Positions 38,157 through 46,101 of a stretch of DNA of 64,000 nucleotides are shown here, piece by piece (within the stretch, counting starts at the first letter, position 1; every line of letters starts with the position of its first letter). The stretch is from the NCBI GenBank assembly GCA_020631905.1, contig JACKGQ010000001.1, positions 690,165 through 754,164 on the forward strand. Direction: 5' to 3'. This stretch comes from Candidatus Nomurabacteria bacterium (GTDB lineage Bacteria; Patescibacteriota; Saccharimonadia; Saccharimonadales; VXPC01). Both the position numbers and the translations under genes were made by a program. Under the pieces are notes generated by a model that saw only the letters and a list, made by a program, of their open reading frames with translations, searched no databases and was not told the DNA's origin.

Positions 38157-39935
38157 TTAGGCAACGATACCAAATTTGTTTAACGCCTGCTTACGCTGTT
38201 CGGCACTTTTTGCGCTTTGAACTGCCAACAATTGAGCGTAGATGCCTTTGGTTTTTGCCAGCTTTGTTGGACTCCCGATCTCGTCTACCTGGCCATTCTT
38301 AAGGGTAACGATTACATCGACATTTTGGATGGTGCTCAGACGGTGTGCGATGATAATAGTTGTCCGGGCATGCATTAAATTCTCGAGCGCCTCATGGACT
38401 AATAGTTCACTTTTACTGTCTAGGCTACTCGTTGCCTCGTCGAGTATTAAGATTGGGGCGTCTTTTAAGATAGCTCGGGCAATTGCAATCCGTTGCTTTT
38501 GACCACCACTCAACTTCAGCCCTCTTTCACCAATCAAAGATTCGTAGCCGTCATCGAAGCTGTTAATAAAATCATCTGCGTTGGCAGCTTTGGCGGCAGC
38601 GATAATCTGCTGCTTAGTGGCGGCTGGTTTGCCGTAAGCTATGTTCTCGGCGATGGAACCAGAAAATAAGTTGGGTTCCTGAAACACAACGCCAATATTT
38701 TTACGTAAGCTATGTTGCTTGACACCGGCGATGTCTTGGCCATCTACCGCAATGTTACCCTGACTCGGCTGATATAGCCTCAGAAGCAAGTTGGCGATTG
38801 TCGACTTACCCTCGCCGCTCTCACCCACTAAAGCGATCTTGCTGCCTGGTTCGATCGAAAAGTTTAAGCCCTTGATAACTGGTTTTTTATCGTAAGCAAA
38901 GTGTACATCTCTGAACTCCACTTTGCCTTTAGCCACACGCAAGTTTTTTGCAGCTGGCACGTCTTCGATGGCTGGTACGGTATCGAGTGCCATAAAGTAA
39001 TCTTTACTATCTGCAACAGCTCTCTGGATATTCTCGACCAAAAAGCTAATTGTGAATACTGGCATACGGATCATCAGTGTTAACTGAAAAATCATAATTG
39101 TATCGGCTAGACTTAAACTGCCAGTTTTGGCCTGCCAAAACAGCAATAAGTAAACTATCCCAAAAATCACATTTAAGACAAGTTTGCGACGAAAATCCAT
39201 CGTGTGCCACAGCCGACTCTGGGGCTTGGTGAGTTTAAGTGTTTGTTTAAGATGTTTGCTAAAAAAGTTAAGCTCCGATTGCTCCCGCACAAAACTCTTT
39301 ACAGCCTTTACTTGTGAAATAGATTCTTGGAATCGGCCAAAAGCAATATCTTGGTTCTGGTTGATACCATCTTGATACTCAATCCATTTGCCGCTCGATC
39401 GAACAGTTAACCAGATAAAAATTGGGTATAGGCTAAAAAGGAGCAGAGCTATCAGCGGGCTAAAATAGGCCACAATTGCCAAACTAAAAACCGTCGTCAG
39501 TATAAAAGACGCAAAGTTGTTGCCCATCATCTTAACGAACTCAGTAATCTGAACTACGGAACGCGTCAGGCGAGCGGTAATTTTACCCGATAACTCTGTA
39601 TCAAAATAACTCTGGGGCAATTGTAAGATGTGTTCGTAATAACGGTTACTCAAAAATATTTTTAGTTTTACCGATAAAACATCGCCATGATACTGCATGA
39701 AATTTACCAAGACATTGCTAACGACATCTTGGGCAAACAGTAGTCCGACGATAATTAAAATTGCCTTATCACTAGCAGCTGCGCTACCAACATTTTGAAG
39801 CTCAGCGACTAGCTGTCGAATCAGAATCGGCTGGAGCTGAACCAGTAGCGAAACAACTGCCGTAAAAATAAACAGCAGTAAATAATATGGCCACAGGTGT
39901 TTTGTGAACCTAATAATTTTTAAGAGTGGCTTCAC
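38157..39935 (-). CDS. ABC transporter, fused permease/ATPase (MsbA/exporter type)
   Basis: Six-TM N-terminal domain. Walker A GESGEGKST, signature LSGGQKQR and Walker B ILILDEATS. Confidence 0.88.
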   Translation of the reverse strand: MKPLLKIIRFTKHLWPYYLLLFIFTAVVSLLVQLQPILIRQLVAELQNVGSAAASDKAILIIVGLLFAQDVVSNVLVNFMQYHGDVLSVKLKIFLSNRYYEHILQLPQSYFDTELSGKITARLTRSVVQITEFVKMMGNNFASFILTTVFSLAIVAYFSPLIALLLFSLYPIFIWLTVRSSGKWIEYQDGINQNQDIAFGRFQESISQVKAVKSFVREQSELNFFSKHLKQTLKLTKPQSRLWHTMDFRRKLVLNVIFGIVYLLLFWQAKTGSLSLADTIMIFQLTLMIRMPVFTISFLVENIQRAVADSKDYFMALDTVPAIEDVPAAKNLRVAKGKVEFRDVHFAYDKKPVIKGLNFSIEPGSKIALVGESGEGKSTIANLLLRLYQPSQGNIAVDGQDIAGVKQHSLRKNIGVVFQEPNLFSGSIAENIAYGKPAATKQQIIAAAKAANADDFINSFDDGYESLIGERGLKLSGGQKQRIAIARAILKDAPILILDEATSSLDSKSELLVHEALENLMHARTTIIIAHRLSTIQNVDVIVTLKNGQVDEIGSPTKLAKTKGIYAQLLAVQSAKSAEQRKQALNKFGIVA

Positions 39936-40570
39936 TATTCTTCGCTAGATTCAGATTTATCGGTTGTAGATTCGGTGGTTTCGGCATCTGCAGGAGCTTC
40001 TTCTTCGGTCTCTTCAACGACACGAGGTGTTTCGACTTTTACGATACTTGCTTCTGGATCGGCCATCAATACCACGCCTTCTGGCAAGACGATATCTTTG
40101 GTGTGTACGCTGTCGCCGTCCTCGGTAAGACCAGATATGTCGACATCAAGGTGTTCGGGGATACTAAGCGCACCGGCCTCTACTTCTAGCGTATCCAAGA
40201 TCTGCAACACAAGTAGGCCTTTGCTGGCAGCTGGAGCGTCACCAACAAGCACTAGTGGCACATTAGCATGTACTTTTTCACCTTTTTTAACTTCTTGGAA
40301 TGTAACATGCTCGACAGTGTTTTTGGCTGGAACAAATTTAACTTCTGTTACTAAAACTGTATGATCGCTATCGCCAGCTTTAATTAAAACAGGCTGTGTA
40401 TAGCCAACTTTTTGTAAAACCTTAAGCAGGTGATTGTACTCTGTTTGAATAGCCACCGACTCTTTGCCATGACTAACAATATTGGCAGGTACCAGCCCAG
40501 CTCTCCGCAAAGCTTTATTTTTTTTGCCAGCCGCCTGGCGAATTTCGACTGCAAGTTCAACAGCTTTCAC
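39935..40570 (-). CDS. rplY: 50S ribosomal protein L25/general stress protein Ctc with an acidic C-terminal tail
   Basis: bL25 N-terminal domain (RRAGLVPANIV) and Ctc-type beta domain. GTG start with AAGAGG RBS. Confidence 0.88.
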   Translation of the reverse strand: MKAVELAVEIRQAAGKKNKALRRAGLVPANIVSHGKESVAIQTEYNHLLKVLQKVGYTQPVLIKAGDSDHTVLVTEVKFVPAKNTVEHVTFQEVKKGEKVHANVPLVLVGDAPAASKGLLVLQILDTLEVEAGALSIPEHLDVDISGLTEDGDSVHTKDIVLPEGVVLMADPEASIVKVETPRVVEETEEEAPADAETTESTTDKSESSEE

Positions 40571-40613
40571 TCTAATTAACCTCTTATCTGATTATTGTCT
40601 AAAATAGGCTGGT

Positions 40614-40642
40614 AGTATACCAGATAACACCTCTAAGGACAA
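40614..40642 (-). promoter_or_regulatory. Putative rplY promoter (-35 TTGTCC, 17-nt spacer, -10 TATACT)
   Basis: Read on the minus strand about 45-75 nt upstream of the rplY start. Embedded in a palindromic leader. Confidence 0.5.
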
Positions 40643-40941
40643 GCCGAAATCACTATGGAACCCGGGCGTCTTTACCCGGGTTCTGGAAAGCGTTCCCTAG
40701 AGGTGTCCACCTCATCACTTCCGTAACTTAATTATACTCCCGATTGCAAGCCATGCCGTGATAAACAGCATAGCCATTTTATAATGATTGAGTTATTCCA
40801 CAAAAACCACTAAAACTTAATGAATTTTGGGGAATCGGTGTTGGAAACCGATACTAAAAGTGGCTCAATTGTGAGGGAGCTTTGGTAGCTCAACCTCAAA
40901 CAAGAACTCTACTTTTAGGAAGATTCATCCCCTTCACCTAC

Positions 40942-41091
40942 CTACATGTACCTCAGGTCCTTGGGACGCTGATTATGCGCCTCCATTGATCGGACGTAAG
41001 CACCGTAGGCCTTCTGGACGTCAGGGTGACTGCGATCACCACCACACTTCTGGAGTGCGCGCTTGACCGCCTCTTCCTGGTTTCCTGCCAT
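40942..41091 (-). CDS. Candidate small protein (49 aa, MAGNQEEAVKRALQKCGGDRSHPDVQKAYGAYVRSMEAHNQRPKDLRYM), GC-rich, strong RBS
   Basis: Below the ORF-track size cutoff. Found by reverse-complementing by hand. AAGGAGGTGA lies 5 nt upstream of ATG. TAG stop. About 58% GC against a 42-46% background. Confidence 0.4.
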   Translation of the reverse strand: MAGNQEEAVKRALQKCGGDRSHPDVQKAYGAYVRSMEAHNQRPKDLRYM

Positions 41092-41246
41092 TTTGCTCAC
41101 CTCCTTTCAAGAGGCTCGAGAAGTGCAGCTGGTTGCTGCATCTGGGGAAATGAATAAGAATCTTTGCCTAGAGAGCTGGCACCCGGTGCCAGTGATTGCC
41201 CGCTCGGGGCGCCAGCTCTACTAGGCTGTACGGCCGAAGCCATACG

Positions 41247-41417
41247 AGCCGCCGGGAGGAATCGAACCTCCGACTATCGGTCGATGTGTCCGCACGTGAT
41301 GCGGTATGAATTTCCGGCCTTCCGTCTGCTAGCCTCCGTGGACAAGCAGACATACTGCAGGAGTCCTAAGGTAACTACAACGATCGACCGAAACTCTACC
41401 GACTGAGTTACGACGGC
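41247..41417 (-). tRNA. tRNA-like gene whose anticodon arm is replaced by a ~100-nt structured insertion closed by a 9-bp helix; isotype unresolved
   Basis: Minus strand reads GCCGTCG-TA-ACTC-AGTCGGTA-GAGT-T-TCGGT...[insertion]...ACCGA-TAGTC-GGAGG-TTCGATT-CCTCC-CGGCGGC-T. The acceptor stem is 7 bp with one G-U. D-arm, variable loop and T-arm are canonical. CCA is not encoded. Confidence 0.5.
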
Positions 41418-41426
41418 GAGTATCAC

Positions 41427-41462
41427 GTGGTTGTGCCCGAGTGAACACCCGGGCACAACCAC
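41427..41462. repeat. 13-bp perfect inverted repeat (GTGGTTGTGCCCG...CGGGCACAACCAC) with a 10-nt loop, 10 nt upstream of the tRNA-like gene
   Basis: Verified by reverse complement. GC-rich stem with no U-run. Confidence 0.7.
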
Positions 41463-41574
41463 TTCGGGGCAGGCGCAAACCTTGCGAACGCAGAGCTGTG
41501 AAGGCGGTTAAACCTACTCTGTGAACTTGAATGAGGTCTGCATACGGGCGGAATCCGTTGCCATTGCACCCTAG

Positions 41575-41649
41575 CAGTCTCGACGGGATTTGAACCCGTG
41601 ACCTCTGGCGTGTGATGCCAGCGTGAACTCCAGACTTCACCACGAGACT
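41575..41649 (-). tRNA. tRNA-Val (anticodon CAC)
   Basis: Hand-folded cloverleaf: acceptor AGTCTCG/CGAGACT, D-stem GTGA/TCAC, anticodon stem CTGGC/GCCAG, loop AUCACAC, T-arm ACGGG-TTCAAAT-CCCGT, discriminator G. CCA not encoded. Confidence 0.8.
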
Positions 41650-41651
41650 GG

Positions 41652-41727
41652 TGGTCGAGGTGGGTATCGATCCCACATACCTCCAGCTTTTCAGGCTGGT
41701 ACTCTGAACCTCCTGAGCTACTCGACC
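41652..41727 (-). tRNA. tRNA-Phe (anticodon GAA)
   Basis: Acceptor GGTCGAG/CTCGACC, D-stem GCTC/GAGT, anticodon stem CCAGC/GCTGG, loop CUGAAAA, T-arm GTGGG-ATCGATA-CCCAC (A54), discriminator A. CC follows, and the terminal A is nt 1 of tRNA-Val. Confidence 0.75.
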
Positions 41728-41973
41728 GGGTGGAGTCTTACCGAACAACGCATGCATGCGGGTGTAACACCACAAGCCTGTACGGCGTCTCCGCCAGACA
41801 GTTGCGCCTTTCGGCAGTACTCCAATGGCGGTTACCCGCCACATTCAACTGGTACCACAAAGTGGGCCCAGCCGGAACATTTCCCAGTTCCTAACGTTTG
41901 ATTCGGTCTCCAGCTGTCTGGAATAACCGTATCGGCACGCTAACCTCCCCCACCGGTTTCTACGGCGAGGTAG
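41728..41973 (-). ncRNA. Unassigned GC-rich structured segment between tRNA-Phe and tRNA-Glu (candidate ncRNA or processed spacer)
   Basis: 246 nt with several short GC hairpins (GGCGGGTAACCGCC, GGCGGAGACGCC). No ORF with an RBS. No match recognised by eye to RNase P, SRP or tmRNA consensus motifs. Confidence 0.25.
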
Positions 41974-42047
41974 CACCCCTGACAGGATTCGAACCTGTGC
42001 TTACGCCTTGAGAGGGCGCTGTTTTAGACCAACTAAACTACAGGAGC
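41974..42047 (-). tRNA. tRNA-Glu (anticodon CUC)
   Basis: Acceptor GCTCCTG/CAGGGGT with two G-U pairs. D-stem GTTT/AAAC, anticodon stem GCGCC/GGCGT, loop CUCUCAA, T-arm ACAGG-TTCGAAT-CCTGT, discriminator G. Confidence 0.7.
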
Positions 42048-42108
42048 ATTGCTTGAGAGAACTGCGAAGCTAAACAACACATGTTGTATAGCTACAGCAA
42101 CCCCTCTG

Positions 42109-42181
42109 TCGGGCGACCCCGTTTCGATCGGGGGACCTTGCGAGTTGTACTCGCATGCTCTGCCGGCTGAGCTACCGCCCG
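42109..42181 (-). tRNA. tRNA with atypical anticodon ACA (nominally Cys-decoding); isotype uncertain
   Basis: Acceptor CGGGCGG/TCGCCCG (C1-G72), D-arm TA-GCTC-AGCCGGCA-GAGC, anticodon stem TGCGA/TCGCA, loop GUACAAC, T-arm CCCCG-ATCGAAA-CGGGG (A54), discriminator A. Confidence 0.55.
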
Positions 42182-42508
42182 GTAAGGCTTGCCGATTCTG
42201 CTAGTGAGCTATTCCGCACTCCAACGTGCACTACGATCTGCGCAGCACACCCTAGCTATCTTTACCGGCCAACCCGTTCATTTGGGGCGGCAACACCTTC
42301 CCCAAACTAATCCAAATCACTATGTGGTGATCTCGATTAGCCTGGAGAATGTTGGTATTAAAAAATTCTTATTCTTTAATTTTAATGAATCTTTTCTCGT
42401 CAAAAAAACGAGAAGTTTCCAACACCTTGTAAAAAAACACCTCACCAGGAGCAAAGGCTCCTCAACGAGGATGCCACTATTATACACTCACCAGGGGTTA
42501 AAATCAAG

Positions 42509-45052
42509 TTAGATTTGCCTAGCCTGATACTTTTGCGAGCCGACTTGAGCTATTGACTCGATCACATCTGTAACTTCTTGGGTCGTAAGTGTCTTGTCGA
42601 GTGAACTCAATCTAATTCTGAAACTCGTATTCTTTAAGCCTGCTTCTGGCTCAAAAATACTGACAGTAGACAGTGTATATTTATAACCTGTCTGCTCAAG
42701 TACTTCAACGACTGTCGACTGTAGATCGCCAAAACTAACACTGTTTGTAGTTTGTAAAGTGATGTCCTGAGCAGAACTTGGAAAGCGACTTAGCTCTGTG
42801 TAAGGACTCTTCGCTTGCCAATTGGCAAGCGCTTGGGTTTCGATCTCGAAGCCGGCACAAGCCCCTGGCAATCGAAAGGCACGTTCAACACCTGGCTTGA
42901 ACTCACCCACAATACCTAAGAAAGATCCATTTTTTATCGATATTAAACTCGACCGACTTAAATCGTATGGAGAAGTAATCGGAAAATCGGTTTCGGGAGG
43001 TACTGGTCGAAATTCTAGTTCGGCTCCAAAGGCATGCGCTAAGCGTCGCAAATACTCCTTTGCTTCGTAATATCCAGTGCCTGAACGTTGTTTCAATTTG
43101 CTGGCAAATACCAAGCCCGTAACTTCTATCTCGCCAGGCAATCCAGACTCGTCTAGTCCATGAACTTTATTATGGGTTTTCCCGACTTCGAACAGCGCGA
43201 ACTCCTCGTAGCCAGCCTTAATATTCTGATGCACGCTGTCGAGTAAACTTGGCATCAGGCTCTGGCGATAAAAATGCAAGTCTGGGCTAATCGCATTGCT
43301 TATAGCATAAGAATCTTCTGGTTTCTGGCCGGCCTTCTCGAGCAAACTCCGGTGGACAAAGCTATAGGTTAGTAGCTCGTTAGCACCGATAGTCGCCAAA
43401 CTTGAGCGAATCTTGGCTTTTGTTTTAAAAAGCTGGTTGACTTCGACTGGTTTGGTCGAGCGTTTTGGCAAACACAGGGCTAAATTATCGTAGCCATAGA
43501 GCCGACCAACTTCTTCGACAATGTCTTCTTTGATCTCGATATCGGTGCGCCAAAAGGGGGCGGTCACCGACAGCTCATCGGCCTCGGCTTCAACCACAAA
43601 TTCCACATTAGTTAAGAGTTGTTGAATTTCGGTGGCTGATAAGCTTGAGCCAAGTCGACTGTTTAAAAACTCCGAACTTATGCTGACTGGTTTGTTTGTA
43701 GCTAAATTGGATTTAACATCGTACCATTTGTCGTACGACATACCGCTTGAACTGCAAACCACCTCTCCCGCCGCTATCGAGGCGCAGGCCAATGTTTGCC
43801 AAGGGCTCTGACCTTTGTTGAAGCGACTAGCGGCATCACTGAATAGTCCGTAGTGCATGCTTGTTCGACGGATCGAGTACATATCAAAGTTTGCCGCCTC
43901 GAGAACCACTTTTGTAGTGGAGTTGTCGACTTCGGTATCGGCACCACCCATAACTCCACCAACACCTACGATTTCTTGGTCGGTCGCAATTACAATCGCT
44001 GGCTGATTAAACTCAATCGTTTTGCCATTGAGCAATTTAAGCTGCTCGCCACTCTGGCTAAGCCGAGCAACCAATGTTGGCGTACCAGAACTTCGAGCAG
44101 CTAACTTGGCATAATCATAGGCGTGGAGTGGTTGGCCATAGGCGTGCATAATGTAGTTTGTAATATCGACGATGTTATTGATCGGTCGATAGCCGGCTTT
44201 AGTAAGATTTATTTGTACATCGAGTGAAGATGGCCGAACCTCGACATCTTCAACTATTAATGCCGAAAAACGACTCACCAAATCTGTTTCGATTCTTACT
44301 ACCAGCTGTTCATCGGCAGTTATTGTCTGGCTAAACTCGGTTTGGTACCATTTAGGGCTTGTAAATTGTTTGCCAAATATTCCGGCCACTTCGCGAGCTA
44401 CACCCAGCTCGCCAAAACAATCAGGACGGTGCGTGAACATTTTGTTCTCGATCTCGATCACGTAATCGTTTAGATCGAAGACTTCGGCAAAACTATCGCC
44501 CGGTTTATATTTTTCGGTACGTCTAAAATTGGCTAAGGCCTCTACGTGAGGTACTTCGTTGGCTGGTTTGATAGCTTCGAGCCTGGTTGACTCGGGTAGC
44601 TCGACAATGCCATTATGATCATCGCCAATCGCCAACTCTTTAAGGCTAGCTAGCATGCCGTTACTGATAACCCCACGAATTTCACGAGACTCTAAAACAA
44701 ATGGTTCATCATCGGCAAAACTGGCCGGGACAGTTGCGCCAGGCTGTAGCCAAACTGCCCACATATCGGCATGAACATTTGGTGCTCCACAAACCACTTG
44801 AATGTAGCCATTTTCGTCTCGCTTTAGATCGGGGTTTTTGCCACCATCATCTACCGTGCATATACTAAGTTTATCGGCATCTGGGTGTTTTTCGCAGGTA
44901 ATAACTTTTACAATTAGAGCCCCTTTATATTTGGCACCCCAGTCCTCGACTGCCTCGACCTCACCCAAGCGCGAGCCAATACGTGCCACCATTTCTTCGA
45001 CACTTACATCTAGTCCTGTTAGGCGTTTGATTTCGTTATAACTTACCCTCAT
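42509..45052 (-). CDS. pheT: Phenylalanine--tRNA ligase beta subunit
   Basis: Start placed at MRVSYNEIKRLTG, the conserved PheT N-terminus, giving a 4-nt overlap with pheS. tRNA-binding, B3/4, B5 and FDX-ACB domains by length and pattern. The ORF track extends 33 codons further upstream. Confidence 0.9.
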   Translation of the reverse strand: MRVSYNEIKRLTGLDVSVEEMVARIGSRLGEVEAVEDWGAKYKGALIVKVITCEKHPDADKLSICTVDDGGKNPDLKRDENGYIQVVCGAPNVHADMWAVWLQPGATVPASFADDEPFVLESREIRGVISNGMLASLKELAIGDDHNGIVELPESTRLEAIKPANEVPHVEALANFRRTEKYKPGDSFAEVFDLNDYVIEIENKMFTHRPDCFGELGVAREVAGIFGKQFTSPKWYQTEFSQTITADEQLVVRIETDLVSRFSALIVEDVEVRPSSLDVQINLTKAGYRPINNIVDITNYIMHAYGQPLHAYDYAKLAARSSGTPTLVARLSQSGEQLKLLNGKTIEFNQPAIVIATDQEIVGVGGVMGGADTEVDNSTTKVVLEAANFDMYSIRRTSMHYGLFSDAASRFNKGQSPWQTLACASIAAGEVVCSSSGMSYDKWYDVKSNLATNKPVSISSEFLNSRLGSSLSATEIQQLLTNVEFVVEAEADELSVTAPFWRTDIEIKEDIVEEVGRLYGYDNLALCLPKRSTKPVEVNQLFKTKAKIRSSLATIGANELLTYSFVHRSLLEKAGQKPEDSYAISNAISPDLHFYRQSLMPSLLDSVHQNIKAGYEEFALFEVGKTHNKVHGLDESGLPGEIEVTGLVFASKLKQRSGTGYYEAKEYLRRLAHAFGAELEFRPVPPETDFPITSPYDLSRSSLISIKNGSFLGIVGEFKPGVERAFRLPGACAGFEIETQALANWQAKSPYTELSRFPSSAQDITLQTTNSVSFGDLQSTVVEVLEQTGYKYTLSTVSIFEPEAGLKNTSFRIRLSSLDKTLTTQEVTDVIESIAQVGSQKYQARQI

Positions 45053-46101
45053 GCGAACTGCCTCAAGAAATCTAGCTTGCCGCTCTGGAAATGGCGGATA
45101 TCTTCGATACCGTGCTTGATCATTACCATTCTCATAAAACCTATTCCCCATGCAAAACCAGTATATTTTTCGGGGTCGATACCTGCTTCGCTAAGCACAT
45201 TCGGATGAATCATGCCGCAACCAAGTAGTTCAATCCAGCCTTCACCACAGACTTTACAGCCCTGCTTGTCGCAGAATGGGCAAGAAATAGCAAACTCAAA
45301 CGATGGTTCGGTAAACGGAAAATAAAATGGCTGGGTTTTGATCTCGATCTCTTTCTGGTAGTACTCTTGCATAAACTCTTTGAGAGTCGCAATCAAGTGT
45401 GCAGTGGTTACACCCTCGGCTACATAAACTCCTTCGATCTGGTAGAAGGTGTGCTCGTGGCGAGCATCGAGATCTTCGTTACGAAAAACTCGGCCGGGCA
45501 CTACCACGGCAATTGGCTCACCGGCTTCTAACTGTGCCTTGCGAGCTTTAAGGACTCGATTCTGCATGTTACTGGTATGGGCTGGCGCCACAAGCGGTCG
45601 ACCATTTTTATCGACTTCGTCCAAAATAAAGGTGTCGTATTCGTCGCGAGCTGGGTGACCATCCGGGAAATTCAGGCTATCGAACATATAATATTGGTTA
45701 TCTAACTGGCGCGACTCAACCGAAGTAAAGCCCATTCGGTAAAAAATATCGAGCATTTCATCTTGTGCCTGCATAATCGGGTGTTGGCTCCCCAAGCGAC
45801 TATCGACTAAGGTTGGAGAATCATTTTCGCCGACGCTAAACGGAGCGGTTACATCGATCGGTTCCTTCTTCGGAGCGTCTTGCTCGGCTTGCCAATTGTC
45901 GACTTGTGCCTGGATTTCATTTTTTAGACGATTTAGCTCGGCCCCAAACTTACCACGCTCTTCTGGAGCACGATCTTTTATAGCTTTAAGCAGCTCACCT
46001 AATCGTCTATCTTTTAAGATGACTGTTTTATCTAGGCTAGACTCAAAATCTGCTTGCAGAGCAGTAGCCAGTTCGGCGATTTCAGAAAACTCATATTCCA
46101 T
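45049..46101 (-). CDS. pheS: Phenylalanine--tRNA ligase alpha subunit
   Basis: Class II motifs 2 and 3 (FRNEDLDARHEHTFYQIEG, GFAWGIGFMRMVMIKHGIEDIR). Length 350 aa. Confidence 0.93.
   Translation of the reverse strand: MEYEFSEIAELATALQADFESSLDKTVILKDRRLGELLKAIKDRAPEERGKFGAELNRLKNEIQAQVDNWQAEQDAPKKEPIDVTAPFSVGENDSPTLVDSRLGSQHPIMQAQDEMLDIFYRMGFTSVESRQLDNQYYMFDSLNFPDGHPARDEYDTFILDEVDKNGRPLVAPAHTSNMQNRVLKARKAQLEAGEPIAVVVPGRVFRNEDLDARHEHTFYQIEGVYVAEGVTTAHLIATLKEFMQEYYQKEIEIKTQPFYFPFTEPSFEFAISCPFCDKQGCKVCGEGWIELLGCGMIHPNVLSEAGIDPEKYTGFAWGIGFMRMVMIKHGIEDIRHFQSGKLDFLRQFA

Follow-up and report, generated by a model that had tools for sequence, protein, structure and literature searches.

The window analyzed here is a stretch of 64,000 nucleotides (nt) from the 835-kb, two-contig genome of a Candidatus Nomurabacteria bacterium (genome G000, contig C1, positions 690165-754164); its related group is termed Saccharibacteria-like in this study, and genomes of the same order measure 0.5-1.6 Mb. 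Between the genes rplY and pheT, the window carries a module of 1590 nt that runs from 42426 to 40837 on the minus strand and is closed by a perfect 12-nt inverted repeat, referred to as the bracket. The interior of the module is an island of high guanine-cytosine (GC) content with transfer RNA (tRNA)-shaped units and folded segments, two of which (41419-41574 and 41728-41973) had been left unexplained in a preliminary description. In the reading preferred here, which we consider to have an even chance of being correct, the two stretches are strongly folded internal spacers of the bracketed module, and the module is a dedicated structured-RNA transcription unit with tRNA mimics. Such a unit is the simplest model to accommodate a fixed locus, a conserved promoter region, a co-varying bracket, a single cargo orientation, strand-biased folds, and the missing enzymes of tRNA maturation. 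Transcription and processing of the module, and any function of its products, are predicted from the DNA letters. The finding is wider than the preliminary description, which missed the bracket, a small open reading frame (ORF), the lack of CCA ends, and the recurrence in other genomes: the locus is a recurrent, bracketed, and hypervariable tRNA-like locus.

The 5' arm of the bracket (GGTGTTGGAAAC) is located at 42415-42426 and the 3' arm (GTTTCCAACACC), identified by an inverted-repeat search, at 40837-40848, both on the minus strand. Related arm sequences were found in other genomes, including ACAGGTGTTGTC in G570 and AACAGGTGATGTAA in G035. In four modules that carry the small ORF (those of the window, G570, G035, and G688), no perfect inverted repeat joining the upstream region to the 250 nt past the ORF was longer than the bracket, whose 5' arm precedes the first tRNA shape and whose 3' arm lies 50-93 nt past the ORF stop. 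The length of the bracket was reached by 6 of 300 shuffles for the window, and by 12, 0, and 3 of 300 for the other three modules. Directly after the pheT stop, a promoter-like site (42479-42507, minus strand; TTGATT, 17 nt, TATAAT) agrees with the consensus at 10 of 12 positions and is predicted to be a promoter. Most related loci have a -10-like box of the TGnTATA form, seen by eye, at the same place, some 45-60 nt ahead of the 5' arm. The site is followed by a leader hairpin and a U run (42431-42470, minus strand, read from the sequence), which may act as the terminator of pheT, as a leader element for the module, or in both roles; a hairpin occupies the matching position in related loci. 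The letters immediately before the 5' arm (for example, CTTTAACA in G035) resemble the antitermination box of ribosomal RNA (rRNA) genes, a likeness that serves as a lead only.

As previously described, the region between rplY and pheT includes a GC-rich island of about 1.4 kb. Every 200-nt segment within 40900-42299 has a GC content of 0.53-0.60, compared with 0.36-0.51 in both flanks and with 0.447 and 0.464 on the two contigs of G000, in which BLAST found the island once. Logan contigs from four sequencing runs of four studies (activated sludge or wastewater, according to their records) were letter-identical over the island, with 0 other letters in the pieces listed. Since these contigs also crossed both borders (X5 at 40808-40964 and 42169-42769, X7 at 42139-42360, and X6 at 40897-41431), the island is not an assembly artefact. 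A scan of metagenomes with the RplY protein returned three distant loci only, at 26-28% identity, and no close strain.

A search with the small ORF led to relatives of the locus. Brackets with a core around GGTG(T/A)TG were identified in 16 modules of 15 genomes from two Saccharibacteria-like families, adjoining pheT and/or an ATP-binding cassette (ABC) transporter gene. In the family f32, 12 of 23 genomes carry the bracket after pheT; its 5' arm follows the pheT stop at a distance of 77-101 nt, the arm ends are separated by 456-1117 nt, and the ORF is either present or not. The 3' arm precedes the aligned start of the ABC gene by about 85-95 nt. In G546 and, twice, in G666, the arm pair is located beside the ABC-transporter gene instead of pheT; the two copies of G666 are on two short contigs. 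In G759, only the 5' motif was found within the DNA examined. From the family of the window itself, G004 has the bracket, and its 3' arm and neighboring letters are the same as those of the window. In G003, G020, G026, and G030, pheT and rplY are direct neighbors with neither a tRNA nor a bracket between them. The arm 10-mer is too short to serve as a marker of distribution, as it occurred in 251 of 301 genomes of the order with controls not much lower (150 of its 664 places were listed), and it was used solely to find additional paired sites in G546, G666, G591, and G342. The f32 form of the 5'-arm 10-mer (ACAGGTGTTG) also occurs within the 16S rRNA of G000 (C1:352964-352994), so that the f32 3' arm is complementary to that segment; this match was noticed post hoc and may be due to chance.

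The two arms of the bracket co-vary. At each of the positions -3 to +8 around GGTG, the two arms are paired in 13-16 of the 16 modules, and five columns include more than one type of pair. The modules together contain 220 paired cells, against 201.2 ± 5.0 when the 3' arms were dealt to other genomes, and 220 was reached in one of 1,000 deals. Given this drop upon dealing, arm complementarity is kept genome by genome. A comparison of the congeneric genomes G035 and G688 revealed compensatory changes: none of 87 predicted pairs is broken, six pairs differ in both bases, and ten have a one-sided change by way of G-U, with the changes falling in both the tRNA-like cloverleaf and the leader hairpins. 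The two modules are identical at 430 of 519 positions, compared with 649 of 900 at the end of pheT; the corresponding values are 64 of 80 from the pheT stop to the 5' arm and 83 of 91 in the 90 nt after the 3' arm. The identity of the module and the lack of broken pairs indicate that selection keeps the RNA structure on the pheT strand.

The folds of the two stretches were compared with dinucleotide shuffles, which control for GC content (200 shuffles per stretch). On the minus strand, the 246-nt spacer (41728-41973) folds at -116.8 kcal/mol (z -6.17) and the 156-nt spacer (41419-41574) at -68.2 kcal/mol (z -4.54), and in neither case did any of the 200 shuffles fold as well. On the plus strand, the values are -87.9 kcal/mol (z -2.64) and -62.6 kcal/mol (z -3.01), respectively, and this strand bias indicates an RNA on the strand of the tRNAs. 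The inverted repeat noted earlier in the shorter stretch is real: its 17-nt arms (41427-41443 and 41446-41462) are 94% complementary, and they form a 16-base-pair stem at 41427-41462 in the minimum-energy fold, 8 nt ahead of the next tRNA shape. All seven non-coding segments that were folded on the minus strand beat their shuffles (z -2.3, -4.4, -6.2, -4.5, -2.7, -6.1, and -3.1), the folded set excluding a piece of about 110 nt rich in adenine and thymine (42306-42414). Besides the two stretches, these minus-strand segments include a GC-rich structured leader of the island (42182-42305; -46.7 kcal/mol, z -2.30), in which a D-arm-like remnant was seen by eye, a 60-nt hairpin spacer (42048-42107; -23.4 kcal/mol, z -4.41, 0 of 200 shuffles as good), and a 145-nt structured leader before the ORF (41101-41245; -68.8 kcal/mol, z -6.13), which contains a long hairpin (41172-41219) and ends in a GGAGGTG ribosome-binding site. 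The spacers between the tRNA-shaped units of related modules are also hairpin-rich, but they are non-homologous.

Neither stretch resembled a known RNA. Over the whole window, the Rfam gathering score was reached by three tRNAs only, and the rows obtained in the island at E ≤ 10 were at chance level. The preliminary description had seen no match to ribonuclease (RNase) P, signal recognition particle (SRP), or transfer-messenger RNA (tmRNA) motifs, and Rfam agreed for both stretches, the RNase P RNA being encoded elsewhere; the same scan, proposed at the time as a possible refutation, assigned both stretches to no family. BLAST searches against 41 relatives and 401 genomes of the phylum identified no relatives of either stretch, with matches limited to tRNA-sized parts (the 41-relative tallies here and below, and the 301-genome arm tally, include the unpublished genomes G037 and G659, and none of the specific claims depends on these two). 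The 29 matches of the island to phage records were likewise all tRNA-sized, and three exact seeds taken from the spacers and the insert of the tRNA-like element had 0 matches each in IMG/VR. A scan found no promoter-like or terminator-like site belonging to either stretch. Two further candidates were considered. An internal tandem unit of 550 nt, suggested by two short motifs common to the 246-nt stretch and the tRNA-like unit, was dropped (local alignment score of 33; shuffle mean 29.4, standard deviation 5.9), and no support emerged for hidden tRNAs or a tmRNA in the spacers, for which ARAGORN at lowered thresholds returned only poor and mutually conflicting calls, such as a 'Cys' at 41724-41798 at the 70% threshold. 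Among the three origins that had been offered for the stretches, processed spacers are the best fit, as pieces internal to a bracketed module; free-standing conserved non-coding RNAs found no support, having no relatives, and degraded tRNAs are possible for parts, given the poor 'Cys' call and a tRNA of G570 that is decayed in G751.

On the minus strand of the island, ARAGORN identified four tRNAs, namely Val-CAC (41574-41649), Phe-GAA (41649-41727), Glu-CUC (41973-42047), and 'Cys-ACA' (42108-42181), and with introns allowed it called 41246-41417 as 'Asp-atc, intron 98'. The four tRNAs and the tRNA-like element of the preliminary description were thus recovered in part with independent support: the Rfam tRNA model (RF00005, gathering score 29) scored Glu, Phe, and Val at 67.1, 61.5, and 57.4 bits, whereas 'Cys-ACA' and the insert-bearing unit were called by ARAGORN only and were not listed by the model at E ≤ 10. 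In the Rfam alignments, Glu, Phe, and Val have an anticodon loop of 7 nt that includes U33, and their anticodons are usable. The CCA end is not encoded in tRNA-Glu (41974-42047), in tRNA-Val (41575-41649), or in the 'Cys' gene (42108-42181), which has the T-loop ATCGAAA and in which A34 and a possible 32-38 pair were noted by eye. It is encoded in tRNA-Phe (41649-41727), whose last A is also the first base of tRNA-Val. The insert-bearing element (41246-41418), also without CCA, has intact acceptor, D, and T arms in a minimum-energy cloverleaf, while its anticodon arm is a 9-base-pair stem bearing a branched insert of about 100-110 nt. A group I intron was considered for this insert and rejected: Intron_gpI of Rfam was unmatched at E ≤ 10, no recognizable anticodon-loop residues were seen by eye on either side of the insert on its stem, and group I introns are generally longer than about 100 nt. 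The T-loop of tRNA-Phe (ATCGATA) is unusual, and its T-arm had 16 exact matches in IMG/VR, seven of them inside viral tRNAs called by ARAGORN, in a comparison made with no bacterial control. The viral tRNAs sharing the T-arm are tRNA-His, Glu-UUC, and Asn in large tRNA arrays (L107, L109, L110, L111, L115, L117, and L121).

The cargo is similarly abnormal across modules. In 13 modules, 22 tRNA-shaped genes were found (0-5 per module), all on the pheT strand, and CCA is encoded in two of the 22. Many of their loops could only be called by ARAGORN with 'introns' of 2-98 nt or two-letter anticodons; the loops of related modules have 2-18 extra nt or a length of 6 nt, and several anticodons carry A34. 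The GC content of the modules (0.44-0.58) exceeds that of their flanks (0.30-0.42) in 12 of the 13, the remaining one being G608 with 0.52 in both.

In G000, CCA is encoded in all 36 native tRNAs, compared with one of the five units of the island (Phe). The CCA-adding enzyme domain PF01743 was not found in G000 and was found in three of 41 relatives of the order, while 10 of 10 bacterial controls were positive; its scarcity in the order fits with native tRNAs that all encode CCA. The relatives without the domain include G007, whose genome is complete in one contig. In addition, the RNase Z equivalog scored at most 21 bits in G000, where the cut-off is 293. By the canonical route, this host could therefore not finish four of the five units, since they encode no CCA and neither a CCA-adding enzyme nor an RNase Z was found. 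RNase III is present, and the RNase P RNA is encoded at C1:336502-336854 (231 bits). Judged on these features, the tRNA-shaped units are probably for the most part not decoders, because they are without CCA in a CCA-encoding lineage, the two enzymes were not found, and the anticodon loops of many are wrongly sized.

In the preferred model, a promoter just after pheT would produce a leader hairpin followed by the RNA of the module, in a layout like that of a small rRNA operon. The conserved 5' arm would pair with its complement at the far end and close the whole RNA as a bracket helix, which would be a likely RNase III site. Inside the bracket, the tRNA-shaped units would be parted by stable hairpin spacers, with the small ORF present in some genomes. 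The tRNA shapes might serve as processing elements (for example, as RNase P sites for cutting the precursor), as structural elements, or as tRNA mimics, and the spacers would be pieces released or retained from the precursor that belong to no known RNA family. A more far-reaching proposal, which we advance tentatively and regard as possible rather than probable, is that at least two Saccharibacteria families keep a promoter-driven, helix-bracketed cassette for rapidly evolving tRNA mimics that do not decode, for folded spacer RNAs and, in some cases, for a tiny protein of two helices, in organisms that would have lost the enzymes for maturing such tRNAs. It would represent a new class of structured-RNA operon, with products that perhaps act as nuclease decoys or baits, or on the host. 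As decoys, they would be aimed at tRNA-targeting nucleases of phages, of rivals, or of the host bacterium, the hosts being the cells on which these epibionts live.

Several observations weigh against a dedicated RNA unit. None of the 24 runs listed for the stretch is an RNA run, which leaves the promoter, the precursor, and its processing as predictions. The 246-nt and 156-nt stretches have no relatives in the sets searched that would speak for their own conservation, and some fold stability is expected of any sequence with a GC content of 57%, although the shuffles control for it. The pairing of the arms in minimum-energy folds is a weak test, as the folded RNAs were trimmed at the arms, and co-varying inverted repeats also arise at the DNA level through recombination sites or gene conversion. 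The Phe gene, with its CCA, may be a working tRNA. In G570 and G751, which are of one genus, the module is identical in 476 of 950 aligned columns, below the 549 of 900 at the end of pheT, while identity is 64 of 82 from the pheT stop to the 5' arm and 73 of 91 in the 90 nt after the 3' arm. One tRNA of G570 visibly decayed to a form without a D arm in G751, and the small ORF was replaced by a different one; this turnover shows that some of the cargo is expendable, and its speed is as compatible with neutral decay or replacement as with function. The absences of enzymes are also weakened by the assembly of G000, which is 95% complete and lacks tmRNA and at least three needed tRNAs. Specifically, it has no tRNA for Leu-UAA, Glu-UUC, Val-UAC, Cys-GCA, or Leu-GAG although their codons are used, those read by the first three (UUA, GAA, and GUA) commonly, and no tmRNA was detected at E ≤ 10 even with a profile built from five relatives, all five of which have one. 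Since used codons without decoders and the lack of tmRNA indicate that RNA genes are missing from the assembly, absences from G000 need to be treated with care. In relatives, the tRNAs missing from G000 sit together in one conserved native cluster, which comprises Leu-TAA, Cys-GCA, Gly-GCC, Phe-GAA, Leu-GAG, and Val-TAC. The island Phe is the only tRNA-Phe in the assembly, but the claim that it is the host's sole tRNA-Phe was dropped on account of this incompleteness.

The main rival to the dedicated unit is a decaying array of foreign tRNAs. A conserved hairpin between pheT and the ABC gene, such as a terminator or regulatory stem, would repeatedly have taken up foreign and perhaps phage tRNAs in its loop; the tRNA shapes would be dead or decaying passengers, and the two stretches would be junk or eroded tRNAs that fold well by virtue of their GC content alone. 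We consider this somewhat unlikely, though a serious contender. It would account for cargo without CCA beside native tRNAs that all encode it, for cargo that differs between families and even within a genus, for the loss of the D arm in G751, and for the four relatives whose pheT-rplY interval is without an island; the horizontal spread of tRNA arrays is known (PMC8421152), and the T-arm shared by the island Phe and viral tRNA genes, for which there is no bacterial control, is a lead only. Uptake at a pre-existing hairpin, however, sits poorly with the lack of any empty bracket among the 16 modules, where the shortest span is 456 nt, and with the common orientation of all 22 cargo genes. Strand-biased spacer folds are not expected of junk, the module of G035 and G688 is better conserved than the coding sequence of pheT and has no broken pairs, and no donor of the spacers was found in the phage records, the 401 phylum genomes, or the IMG/VR seed scans.

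The two stretches could instead be independent new small-RNA genes between the tRNAs, for example divergent housekeeping RNAs invisible to Rfam. Both do have strong and strand-biased folds, and some RNAs of G000 are unaccounted for, since neither tmRNA, nor small SRP RNA, nor 6S RNA was found in a genome-wide search. The tmRNA profile from five relatives, however, detected nothing in G000 with the island included. The small-SRP model was also blank in five relatives, which suggests that the SRP RNA of the group is divergent or of another type and makes its absence from G000 uninformative on the island. Housekeeping RNAs would further be expected to have relatives among the 401 phylum genomes, where there are none, and neither stretch has a promoter-like or terminator-like site of its own, which together render this origin improbable. 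Least probable of all is an element acting at the DNA level, in which the arms are terminal repeats of a non-autonomous mobile element or recombinase sites of an inverton or cassette exchanger, with the RNA genes as cargo: perfect inverted repeats of 8-14 nt with a conserved core and variable cargo between them, the two copies of G666, and a bracket that can accompany the ABC gene away from pheT are in its favor, but the modules occupy the same neighborhood in two families, with arms at fixed distances from the pheT stop and the ABC gene, the cargo orientation is constant (22 of 22), G000 has one copy of the island only, inspection by eye revealed no target-site duplication adjoining the arms, genes for a transposase or recombinase are absent from the module and its surroundings, and the contigs of the four runs contain no strand-changing joint at the arms, a weak negative given their low depth and the use of contigs only.

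Among known systems, the rRNA operon has a leader, a long-range processing stem cut by RNase III, and embedded tRNAs. The module is similar in its predicted promoter, leader hairpin, and long-range flanking helix around GC-rich structured RNA with tRNA units. In contrast to an rRNA operon, it contains no rRNA-like sequence according to Rfam, its cargo is hypervariable instead of ultra-conserved, and cleavage of the bracket is a prediction only. Of the cases described so far, tRNA-Other of Bacillus cereus comes nearest, a pseudo-tRNA that forms part of a larger regulatory RNA, and the closest gene-cluster analogue is the horizontally spread tRNA array. With the module, tRNA-Other shares a non-translational tRNA shape in a longer transcript with 5' and 3' extensions (predicted for the module) beside foreign-looking DNA (Rogers et al., 2012; PMC3399842). 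It differs in being single and at the edge of a genomic island, while the module is from another phylum, is known from genes alone, and has 0-5 shapes per array, a conserved bracket, and a fixed locus. The L-arrays are horizontally spread and comprise 20-43 mostly functional tRNAs (Santamaria-Gomez et al., 2021; PMC8421152). The module resembles them and phage tRNA clusters in having supernumerary tRNA genes with short spacers, some pseudogenes, a foreign composition, and a patchy distribution. Unlike the L-arrays, it has 0-5 tRNAs that mostly show abnormal anticodon loops and no CCA, a host in which no CCA-adding enzyme was found, and a fixed bracketed locus. No description of a bracketed tRNA-like locus in these bacteria was found in the literature, supplements being outside the scope of the search.

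Genomes of the candidate phyla radiation are tiny and have little spare DNA, yet 0.5-1.6 kb of GC-rich non-coding sequence is kept here across families, at a locus where the ends and the promoter region are conserved and the tRNA-like content is hypervariable. If transcribed, the module would represent a use of tRNA shapes beyond decoding in a lineage unable to finish CCA-less tRNAs, as well as a concrete and testable RNA locus where almost no biology of non-coding RNA is known. Were the module only a resting place for captured tRNA genes, it would mark a hot spot of recombination and document gene flow into these epibionts. When genomes are annotated, the 'tRNAs' that tRNA finders call here, some of them with odd anticodons (such as ACA, AGT, and AAG), should be left out of the decoding set.

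The small ORF (40942-41091, minus strand) encodes 49 amino acids (MAGNQEEAVKRA...) and has a strong ribosome-binding site, while its RNA does not fold unusually well (z -1.66). AlphaFold predicts a hairpin of two helices for the protein (mean predicted local distance difference test score of 86.9). It matched no family in Pfam or PHROG, gave no usable match in the Atlas, and had no fold match in the PDB at E ≤ 0.001; a word-index search returned only the protein itself, and viral scans returned nothing. An exhaustive HMMER search identified three true relatives, and the alignment A3 was built from all that were found. Genome searches located the ORF in seven of 401 genomes of the order (one of them weak) and in 11 of 401 genomes of the class, both counts including G000. 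In the families f4 and f38, the ORF stands alone, for example after hsp20 with its own terminator. In G570, G035, and G688 of f32, a tRNA-shaped gene whose anticodon arm is abnormal precedes the ORF by 150-300 nt. At these loci, pheS-pheT lies upstream of the ORF and an ABC-transporter gene downstream, the same one that comes after rplY in the window. The translated N-terminal extension of P0004 showed no convincing likeness to the island beyond the ribosome-binding region. The frame that replaces the MAGNQE ORF of G570 in G751 (L132, columns ~790-890) is short, contains two CxxC pairs, and appeared zinc-ribbon-like by eye. On a Saccharibacteria contig (L063, 5295-7279), a lone copy of the ORF is adjoined by four or five tandem genes for small membrane proteins, which share a GGFxYxxSxGD motif and were judged pilin-like or TrbC-like by eye.

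The genes flanking the module are both on the minus strand: rplY (39935-40570) encodes the Pfam domains L25p and TL5_C, and pheT (42509-45151) encodes five PheT domains. A long imperfect hairpin is found 5' of rplY (40609-40720, minus strand; arms at 40627-40639 and 40694-40706), followed by a terminator-like hairpin (40623-40609) directly before the gene. It has no match in Rfam and may be an autoregulatory leader of L25; the start of this rplY leader (acggaagtgatgaggtgga) was seen again 5' of rplY in G020 (L041). On the second contig of G000 (C2:42577-42826), tRNA-Gly(GCC) has a duplicate of its first 25 nt located 173 nt upstream of the intact gene. The duplicate is followed by about 150 nt that end in a degenerate copy of the anticodon arm, and it looks like a disrupted second tRNA-Gly with an insert.

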